The notes under the pieces are model-generated. The model did not search any database and was not told where the DNA came from. It saw nothing but the letters and a program-made list of their open reading frames with translations. A stretch of 49,854 nt of DNA from a virus (taxonomy: Duplodnaviria; Heunggongvirae; Uroviricota; Caudoviricetes): IMG/VR virus record IMGVR_UViG_2529293239_000010, one strand, 5' to 3'. Made by a program: the position numbers and the translations under genes. Below, piece after piece: positions 10,434 to 11,120 of this stretch. How positions within the stretch are numbered: the stretch's first letter is position 1; the number at the start of each line of letters is the position of its first letter.

Positions 10434-11120
10434 ATGACCCCAATAAAAATATTTATGACTATTGCTGATTTCAAACGGCCTAAATTGGAGCTCCCAAACG
10501 GGGCAAACAAACTACTACTGCACTCTTGCTGTGCTCCATGTTCCGGTGAAGTGATGGAGGCGCTTCAGGCCTCGGGAATCGACTACACCATCTTTTTCTA
10601 CAACCCGAACATTCATCCTCAGAAAGAGTATTTAATTCGTAAGGATGAAAATATTCGCTTTGCTGAACAACACGGCGTGCCGTTTATCGATGCTGATTAC
10701 GACACCGACAACTGGTTTGAACGTGCCAAAGGAATGGAATGGGAGCCTGAGAGGGGGATCCGTTGTACCATGTGTTTTGACATGCGTTTTGAGCGGACAG
10801 CGTTGTACGCTGCTGAAAATGGTTTCAGTGTGATCAGCAGTTCACTGGGCATTTCACGCTGGAAAAATATGCAGCAGGTTAACGAGTGTGGGCGGCGAGC
10901 TGTTGCGCATTATCCGGGTATGGTGTACTGGGATTATAACTGGCGCAAGCAGGGCGGCTCGTCCCGTATGATTGAAATCAGCAAGCGCGAAAAATTCTAT
11001 CAGCAGGAATATTGTGGCTGTGTGTATTCTCTGCGCGATACCAATCTACACCGCAAATCTCAGGGACGCCCTCTTATCAAAATTGGCCAACTCCACTACG
11101 GAAAAGAAGAGAAGGAGTGA
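10434..11120 (+). CDS. DUF208/QueH-like protein (putative epoxyqueuosine reductase homolog)
   Basis: N-terminal [11 protein letters not shown] cysteine motif and later CTMC and CGC cysteines, recalled as characteristic of QueH/DUF208; flanked by intergenic regions, so moron-like. Assignment is from memory of the motif and not verified. Confidence 0.5.

Follow-up and report, generated by a model that had tools for sequence, protein, structure and literature searches.

What does a prophage gain from encoding an epoxyqueuosine reductase when its host, Escherichia coli, already has a B12-dependent enzyme for the same step? The question is raised by the IMG/VR virus record IMGVR_UViG_2529293239_000010 (Caudoviricetes), a stretch of 49,854 nucleotides that is called the window in the following. 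It represents a lambda-like prophage, and carries on its + strand an uninterrupted open reading frame (ORF) at 10434..11120, 228 codons long, with the motif HSCCAPCS. The encoded protein is almost certainly QueH, an epoxyqueuosine reductase. The reading that we prefer, to which we assign a probability of about 0.72, is that of a functional queH gene carried as prophage cargo, whose product would reduce epoxyqueuosine (oQ) to queuosine (Q) independently of vitamin B12 (cobalamin), the benefit going most likely to the lysogen.

The initial annotation had assigned the protein to the QueH/DUF208 family from its cysteine motif, and this assignment is borne out by the profile match, the ligand residues, the fold and the close orthology. 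A search against the Pfam QueH model, PF02677.20, gives a full-length match (profile positions 1-174 of 175) with 221.5 bits at a cut-off of 23.5 (E = 1.1e-65), which is far beyond chance, and this family is the sole Pfam match of the protein. The structure of Thermotoga maritima QueH (7lc5) is matched by sequence over residues 27-203, with E = 8e-22 and about 31% identity. For the AlphaFold2 model of the window protein (mean predicted local distance difference test score, pLDDT, of 71.4 and predicted template-modelling score, pTM, of 0.73), ranks 1-5 of a Foldseek search of the PDB are all T. maritima QueH, with E = 2e-9, a target-normalised TM-score of 0.79 and a root-mean-square deviation of 3.3 Å. 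TtuA and LarE come next, with E-values that are weaker by about four orders of magnitude. The T. maritima enzyme (7lc5, 7lc7, 9deu; PF02677, DUF208, IPR003828) has thus the same full-length domain, the same six cysteines and the same predicted fold as the window protein. It differs in lacking a basic extension of about 25 residues at the C-terminus, which is common to the gammaproteobacterial homologues, in having Asp13 where the window protein and the majority of the family have a cysteine, and in being encoded in the core chromosome and not on a prophage.

We turn now to the cysteines themselves. The six cysteines of T. maritima QueH are reported to be the ligands of a [4Fe-4S] cluster and an adjacent iron (Li et al. 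2021). All six are present in the window protein, C25, C26, C104, C107, C187 and C189 being aligned with C9, C10, C87, C90, C169 and C171, respectively, and they are invariant across an alignment of 26 sequences of close homologues. In a library of 1.84 billion proteins, 2525 match the query at E <= 1e-10, and the cysteine columns were scored in 79 diverse representatives from this library. The columns of the CCAPC motif (Cys32, 33 and 36 in the 228-residue numbering) hold cysteine in 66/69, 66/69 and 67/71 representatives, those of the CxxC motif in 76/78 and 75/78, and those of the CGC motif in 53/67 and 55/58 of the representatives that have a residue there. Cys29 of the window protein takes the position of T. 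maritima Asp13, and since 67 of the 71 representatives have a cysteine in this column, CCAPC is the norm of the family and CCAPD the exception. The deposited mutant structures C9S (9d86) and D13N (9dco) indicate that the Cys9 and Asp13 positions have been probed by crystallographers.

It is important to point out that the assignment as such is already public. The exact protein is named QueH in RefSeq, and the family, its fold and its reaction are known. The situation is different on the phage side. The PHROG family of this gene, phrog_3217, is labelled "unknown function"; it matches residues 41-228, its profile of 188 positions beginning at an internal methionine 3' of the CCAPC motif. Among the deposited phage genomes, only that of the temperate Escherichia phage HannyBb clearly carries queH, and there the gene is labelled hypothetical. 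The phage annotation pipelines therefore miss QueH. Most matches in "Bacteriophage sp." records from human faeces, and those in 280-380 kb Acinetobacter and Staphylococcus "phage" records, were not counted as phage QueH, these records being unannotated fragments or oversized, with 32-78% identity. In IMG/VR, 191 viral contigs encode relatives of QueH.

The initial annotation placed the gene at 10434-11120. The intact ORF with its motif is indeed found there, but the start is most likely not at 10434; the true coding sequence (CDS) would instead begin at the second ATG, at 10455, and encode 221 amino acids. We place it there because the leader codons are unconserved, because one allele (L007) has a stop codon among them, and because both the homologues and RefSeq start at the second ATG. 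Namely, the first seven codons of the 228-residue reading vary freely among the alleles of other E. coli prophages, and in L007 the stop falls within them (ITPT*TF). In the alignment, the N-termini of chromosomal homologues from 25 other bacteria coincide with the position of the second ATG, and RefSeq starts the 100% identical gene at this codon, which gives the 221-residue protein WP_000150294.1. The seven preceding codons would then most likely be an untranslated leader, outside the protein.

A third, internal ATG, at residue 41 of the 228-residue reading, was also considered. It is the start of several database representatives and appears to be picked by many gene callers, which are probably misled by the Shine-Dalgarno-like GGTGAAGTG just 5' of it. 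In the 33 codons before this ATG, which include CCAPC, synonymous and non-synonymous changes stand at 6 : 1 versus L007 and at 17 : 6 versus Erwinia. This mostly synonymous change indicates that the codons are translated.

The gene is common in E. coli. It is found in 995 of 5426 complete genomes (18%), at least 80% of the gene being present in 985 of these, and 707 of the carriers have copies that are at least 99% identical to the window gene; every copy listed bears the RefSeq label "epoxyqueuosine reductase QueH". The carriers include O104:H4, ST131, avian pathogenic E. coli (APEC) O18, some O157:H7 and O111, and E. coli B. Of the 1017 genomic places that queH occupies, 1014 are chromosomal, and the context is a prophage in every locus that was inspected, the host prophages being lambda-, Qin- and Rac-like. 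The enzyme that E. coli itself possesses is QueG, as the initial annotation had it: queG is present in all 5426 genomes, and queH is therefore always an addition and never a replacement.

The comparison of alleles points to strong purifying selection on queH. The ratio of non-synonymous to synonymous substitution rates (dN/dS) between prophage alleles is about 0.04 (0.03-0.05), and 0.03-0.09 when five distinct alleles are compared pairwise; alleles separated by a dS of up to 0.46 differ by only 2-9 non-synonymous changes. In 60 carrier genomes, sampled so as to be spread, no disrupted queH was found except for one partial match. In the TOE17 prophage, queH is intact despite insertions of IS1 and IS5 and a truncated terminase. 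The same is seen in the laboratory strain E. coli B (B-ZidR, L008, NZ_CP117469.1), where an intact queH of 93.9% nucleotide identity lies at 6022-6687 in a decayed Qin-like prophage, with pseudogenes and IS3 around it. That the gene is intact amid decayed prophage neighbours argues that the selection acts on the lysogen. The Qin region of K-12 matches only from hokD onwards and lacks the queH part; queuosine maturation may therefore depend on B12 to a different degree in the B lineage and in that of K-12.

As to the origin of the gene, the nearest relatives outside E. coli are the QueH proteins of Erwinia, Providencia, Proteus, Photorhabdus, Gibbsiella, Ewingella, Sodalis and others, with 80-86% identity. 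The alignment of the 26 sequences is colinear from end to end and has 120 invariant positions. Chromosomal neighbourhoods were checked in two genera: in Erwinia the gene order is purL-queH-glrK, and in Providencia queH adjoins tmcA, with purC nearby. Both are core chromosomal regions without phage genes. On the basis of this identity, the colinearity and the core neighbourhoods, the E. coli copy is a recently captured housekeeping gene and not a diverged phage-specific paralogue. What sets it apart from the chromosomal QueH of the Enterobacterales is its location, since it is prophage cargo in every inspected locus.

The borders of this cargo can be drawn quite sharply. Alignment of the flanks gives a cassette of about 720 bp as the block that is common to all prophage alleles (Table 1), situated in a slot between the replication module and hok/sok, with a DUF977/Ren-like gene as its left neighbour. 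In the most divergent context, that of L007, the similarity sets in at CTCTGATGCTACAC (10406), and on the right side the alleles diverge into two unrelated sequences a few bases 3' of the stop codon (~11127). A queH-less prophage (L003, from SF-088) rejoins the window sequence directly after the queH stop codon and has two unrelated hypothetical genes (its positions 1638-3617) in place of queH, and in a prophage that does have queH (L005, from WCHEC4533) a hypothetical gene and a KwaB-like (Kiwa) gene lie beside queH (its positions 6896-8535). Judging from these loci, the slot is a variable hot spot for cargo and defence genes, which follows the DUF977 gene where the replication module ends. 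A compact single-gene cassette with sharp edges in a variable slot is what is also seen for the lambdoid morons (lom, bor, toxin-antitoxin and defence genes). These, however, carry virulence, exclusion or defence factors, whereas queH encodes a tRNA-modification enzyme of the housekeeping type, and of expression signals of its own the scans gave candidate -10 elements and no terminator.

Table 1. Features of the window, with positions counted from its first nucleotide.
Feature	Position	Strand	Remarks
DnaC-like loader gene (ydaV homologue)	8305-9047		frameshifted near 8775
DUF977/Ren-like gene	9840-10280		left neighbour of the queH cassette
Minimal queH cassette	10406..11127	+	block common to all prophage alleles; flank alignments
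Two overlapping candidate extended -10 elements	10412..10432	+	pattern search
Seven in-frame leader codons	10434..10454	+	unconserved between alleles; no counterpart in chromosomal homologues
queH CDS (most likely start)	10455..11120	+	221 amino acids; stop TGA 11118-11120; product identical to RefSeq WP_000150294.1
CCAPC codons, Cys25-Cys26-Ala-Pro-Cys29	10527..10541	+	align with T. maritima Cys9, Cys10, Asp13
CxxC codons, Cys104-Thr-Met-Cys107	10764..10775	+	align with T. maritima Cys87, Cys90
CGC codons, Cys187-Gly-Cys189	11013..11021	+	align with T. maritima Cys169, Cys171
Promoter-like site by hok/sok	11153-11181		
hok/sok type I toxin-antitoxin locus	11188-11513		directly 3' of queH
sok	11188-11363		Rfam, 120 bits
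Mok/Hok ORF	11301-11513		matches phrog_251
Terminator-like hairpin by hok/sok	11582-11599		
tRNA, anticodon CAT	15884-15959	+	same gene called tRNA-Ile by RefSeq in related prophages
tRNA-Arg-TCG	15967-16043	+	tRNA scan of the window
tRNA-Arg-TCT	16057-16133	+	tRNA scan of the window
STnc100 small RNA	16209-16399		Rfam RF02076, 136 bits
SASA-family carbohydrate esterase gene	17109-18962		617 amino acids
IS3-family element	21406-22619		between lysis genes and terminase region
ORF A of IS3-family element	21406-21732		
rve integrase-core ORF of IS3-family element	21729-22619		
Candidate defence gene pair	22745-24374	+ and -	convergent, slightly overlapping; between the IS3-family element and terS
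Class I methyltransferase-domain protein	47890-48555	-	221 amino acids
ORF without Pfam or PHROG match	48704-49129	-	141 amino acids
Rha-family regulator	49297-49854	-	extends past the end of the window

Next, we consider what the enzyme would do for its host. E. coli has no de novo synthesis of cobalamin. Since QueG needs this cofactor and E. coli cannot make it de novo, the lysogen is the likeliest beneficiary of a reductase that works without it. We propose that queH was acquired from the chromosome of a different member of the Enterobacterales, with some 50-100 bp of its native 5' sequence taken along, and that it now moves as a moron in the variable slot between the replication module and hok/sok. 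QueH would then reduce oQ34 to Q34 on the host tRNA-Asp, tRNA-Asn, tRNA-His and tRNA-Tyr, using iron-sulfur chemistry and not cobalamin, and would free the Q maturation of the lysogen from the external supply of corrinoids. Its role would most likely be that of a B12-independent backup for the conversion of epoxyqueuosine to queuosine in host tRNA. The parts of this proposal are not equally firm. That QueH is enzymatically active in E. coli is quite probable, and we infer that the gene is expressed in the prophage state; for B12-independence being the benefit that is selected, the chances appear evenly balanced.

The biochemical background is consistent with such a role. Q and oQ are confined to tRNAs with a GUN anticodon, those for Asp, Asn, His and Tyr, where they take position 34 (PMC9508795, PMC5372724). 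The reaction expected of QueG (YjeS), EC 1.17.99.6, and its four tRNA substrates are those of QueH (PMC5372724, PMC9508795), but QueG depends on cobalamin and a [4Fe-4S] cluster and has a fold that is unrelated to that of QueH (PMC4646009, PMC5175355); it is also universal in E. coli (5426/5426), while QueH is accessory. In a statement that cites Frey et al. 1988, PMC4646009 gives the final step of queuosine synthesis in E. coli as cobalamin-dependent. Staphylococcus aureus is reported to carry both QueG and QueH, and their expression patterns have been read as reflecting the availability of the cofactor (PMC13443448).

A number of points weigh against a B12-independent reductase that serves the lysogen. 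The confidence of the AlphaFold model is moderate only (pLDDT 71.4), and in a scan with NCBIfam no model matches the window protein. The QueH name in RefSeq rests therefore on other evidence, and the null result is neither support for this name nor a contradiction of it. Further, queG mutants that accumulate epoxyqueuosine are not known to have more than a slight phenotype, which makes the selective value of Q over oQ uncertain. The remaining points concern expression. The gene is co-directional with the early-right operon and may for this reason be expressed mainly after induction, and a scan for consensus promoters finds none on the + strand 5' of queH. The pattern search yields two candidate -10 elements, TGCTACACT at 10412-10420 and TGCTATTTT at 10424-10432, but each of them is broken in one prophage allele (L005 and L007), and there is no good -35.

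In the other direction, TGCTACACT is found also 40 nucleotides 5' of the chromosomal Erwinia queH, and this likeness hints at an inherited promoter. A promoter of its own is thus plausible for queH, although we do not claim one. No terminator was found between queH and hok in a consensus scan. An Rfam scan of 9800-16400 returned only sok, the three tRNAs and STnc100, with no preQ1 or other riboswitch 5' of queH, and the predicted folding of the leader is not more stable than that of shuffled sequence (z = 0.5).

With these data at hand, other explanations can be weighed. QueH could serve the lytic growth of the phage: transcribed with the early-right genes after induction, it would turn oQ-tRNA into Q-tRNA and improve the translation of late proteins. 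The location of queH in the early-right region, co-directional with replication and nin-type genes, fits this, as do the absence of a predicted terminator between the early-right genes and queH, the lack of a strong promoter of its own in our scans, and the presence of the gene in at least one phage that was deposited as an isolate, HannyBb. However, queH is intact and under strong purifying selection also in prophages that are apparently unable to grow lytically, the phage genes have no unusual demand for NAU/NAC codons, and the upstream motif in common with the chromosomal Erwinia gene hints at a promoter that came with it. We regard the lytic explanation as unlikely, though it is not exclusive of a benefit to the lysogen. 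It could also be argued that queH is a young passenger without function that hitch-hikes with successful prophages. The many copies of at least 99% identity (707 of 995 carriers) are compatible with a recent spread, and no more than a small effect on the phenotype is known for oQ as opposed to Q. Yet alleles as far apart as a dS of 0.46 have accumulated only 2-9 non-synonymous changes, the 60 sampled genomes contain no disrupted copy apart from the one partial match, and in TOE17 and E. coli B it is the surrounding prophage genes that have decayed, and not queH. A mere passenger is already disfavoured by these observations, and we consider it very improbable.

Two further explanations stem from the initial annotation, which proposed that QueH and the phage tRNA-Ile2, tRNA-Arg(UCG) and tRNA-Arg(UCU) form one translation-tuning module, and mentioned 7-deazaguanine-type chemistry as another option. 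The three tRNA genes (CAT/Ile, Arg-TCG and Arg-TCT) are real; they lie on the same prophage and the same strand as queH and are likewise related to translation, and the trio accompanies an identical queH in 11 of the 31 loci that were sampled and also occurs together with queH in O104:H4 and TOE17. But none of the three has a GUN anticodon, and none can therefore carry oQ or Q. They are separated from queH by 4.8 kb, with the hok/sok, DUF968, RusA, Q antiterminator and DNA methyltransferase genes in between, and the two assort independently. In the sample used for co-occurrence (31 IMG/VR loci that encode identical QueH and have 6 kb of sequence 3' of it), 20 loci lack the trio, 7 of them having another tRNA set (CAT/Lys/Thr/Gly-type) and 13 no phage tRNA cluster. 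No tRNA is found within 6.6 kb 3' of queH in phage HannyBb, nor in the ~6 kb 3' of it in FDAARGOS_144, WCHEC4533 and E. coli B, while colinear prophages without queH (L003) retain the trio. The anticodons in related loci include CAT, TTT, TGT and TCC, and no phage tRNA of the window or of 38 related loci has GTC, GTT, GTG or GTA. Nor are Q-decoded codons used in an unusual way: NAU makes up a fraction of 0.54 in the phage genes (0.53 in early and 0.55 in late ones), near the value of the E. coli genome. Both physically and mechanistically the module is thus largely refuted already, and we give it very little credence. For QueH to act in 7-deazaguanine DNA modification, or in other non-tRNA chemistry such as defence or counter-defence, one can point to the existence of phages with 7-deazaguanine in their DNA (PMC6884629), to the recruitment of QueC-family proteins by defence systems (PMC13639016), and to the KwaB-like gene beside queH in L005, by which the slot holds defence-type cargo elsewhere. 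Against it, the PHROG and Pfam scans, covering the larger likely-coding ORFs of the window with a few mostly short ones left unscanned, show no Tgt/DpdA-like transglycosylase, no preQ0-synthesis gene (FolE, QueD, QueE, QueC) and no QueF gene, and the RefSeq annotation of close relatives shows none of these either. PADLOC-DB assigns no defence family to QueH at E <= 0.001. The window protein is 80-86% identical to housekeeping QueH and keeps every conserved residue, which leaves little room for a new specificity, and its gene is a single-gene cassette with changing neighbours. The phage 7-deazaguanine clusters are likewise phage-borne genes of the queuosine/archaeosine pathways, but they act on DNA, with DpdA and preQ0 genes (FolE, QueD, QueE, QueC), and none of QueA, QueG and QueH is reported by a survey of them for the viruses analysed (PMC6884629); the window has instead a lone late-pathway enzyme that acts at the tRNA level. 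A role in DNA modification or defence is on these grounds scarcely credible. A functional queH that serves the lysogen is hence the reading that we retain.

The surroundings of the gene are those of a lambda-like prophage. The left part holds integrase, excisionase and exonuclease genes, the dicB region, a repressor and CII/YdaT-like genes. It is followed by an O-like initiator, the DnaC-like loader, DUF1627 and DUF977/Ren-like genes, queH and hok/sok, and 3' of these by DUF968, RusA, the Q antiterminator, a DNA methyltransferase, the three tRNA genes, a NanS-type esterase and lysis genes. The late part contains the IS3-family element, a two-gene candidate defence pair, lambda-type head and tail genes, Lom and tail fibres. 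For the first 25 kb of the window, the best genome match covers 88% at 99.4% identity; the element is therefore a mosaic without a whole counterpart in the genome collection. Of the L007 homologue, residues 1-157 align with the loader gene in frame 1, but residues 158-248 do so in frame 3. The split gene could be a pseudogene or a sequencing error, and suggests a prophage that is defective in replication. Together with the insertion sequence in the late region, it indicates that the prophage of the window may be defective.

Some other observations were made in passing. In one of the 13 loci that have an identical queH and no phage tRNA cluster (L044, IMGVR_UViG_651053022_000007), the only tRNA genes nearby are host-type ones for tRNA-Glu, tRNA-Ala and tRNA-Ile(GAT), which suggests that this 92.8-kb contig includes host sequence from an rRNA operon or is mis-delimited. 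Just 3' of the tRNAs of the window there is a full-length gammaproteobacterial small RNA, STnc100. The esterase gene further 3' is named as SASA-family carbohydrate esterase by RefSeq in relatives and belongs to phrog_143, of "unknown function"; we take the protein to be of the NanS-p type. The interval before it is presumably the stx site of Stx phages, and between the tRNAs and the esterase gene of the window no stx genes are present. Of the convergent gene pair, the + strand encodes a protein of 206 amino acids that matches PADLOC "cll" (E = 4e-31) and is called "sce7726 family" in RefSeq, and the - strand one of 355 amino acids that matches PD-Lambda-2_C and "beta" (E = 4e-32) and is called "beta family" in RefSeq. 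The two constitute a candidate prophage-borne anti-phage defence pair. Past the tail-fibre assembly gene, the right end of the window is taken up by three genes of the - strand, those for the methyltransferase-domain protein, the 141-residue ORF product and the Rha-family regulator.

Finally, we turn to what these results mean. The annotation is left unchanged, since RefSeq already gives the name QueH to this exact protein in about a thousand complete genomes of E. coli. What is notable is the biology, namely that a tRNA-modification enzyme of the housekeeping type travels as prophage cargo in a host that already has a B12-dependent isozyme. In the searchable literature we found no paper on QueH/DUF208 as a prophage gene, and its carriage by prophages and the consequence for lysogens seem to be undescribed there. 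The advance is a modest one, a tidy and testable example of a tRNA-modification enzyme encoded by an auxiliary gene of a phage, and no new kind of system. If the enzyme is active, a tRNA-modification enzyme joins the list of phage auxiliary genes, a class acting on host tRNA that was not found in the viruses surveyed earlier (PMC6884629).

One can go further and speculate that the prophages bring about a lysogenic conversion of the tRNA modification state, by means of a cobalamin-independent reductase, in ~18% of E. coli strains; this we put forward tentatively, the odds being somewhat against it. If it is true, the queuosine of lysogens would be fully matured even where corrinoids are scarce, in niches in which non-lysogens get no further than epoxyqueuosine, and the decoding of NAU/NAC codons and the fitness of lysogens could change measurably. 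K-12 and B strains would then differ in their Q/oQ content in the absence of B12. An active QueH predicts in the same way that strains differ in queuosine maturation when B12 is limiting, as might E. coli B or BL21 on the one side and K-12 on the other, a difference that would be relevant to studies of Q-dependent translation and to users of E. coli tRNA or expression strains. It would also allow one to ask, in a simple system provided by nature, whether there is any physiological difference between Q and oQ.

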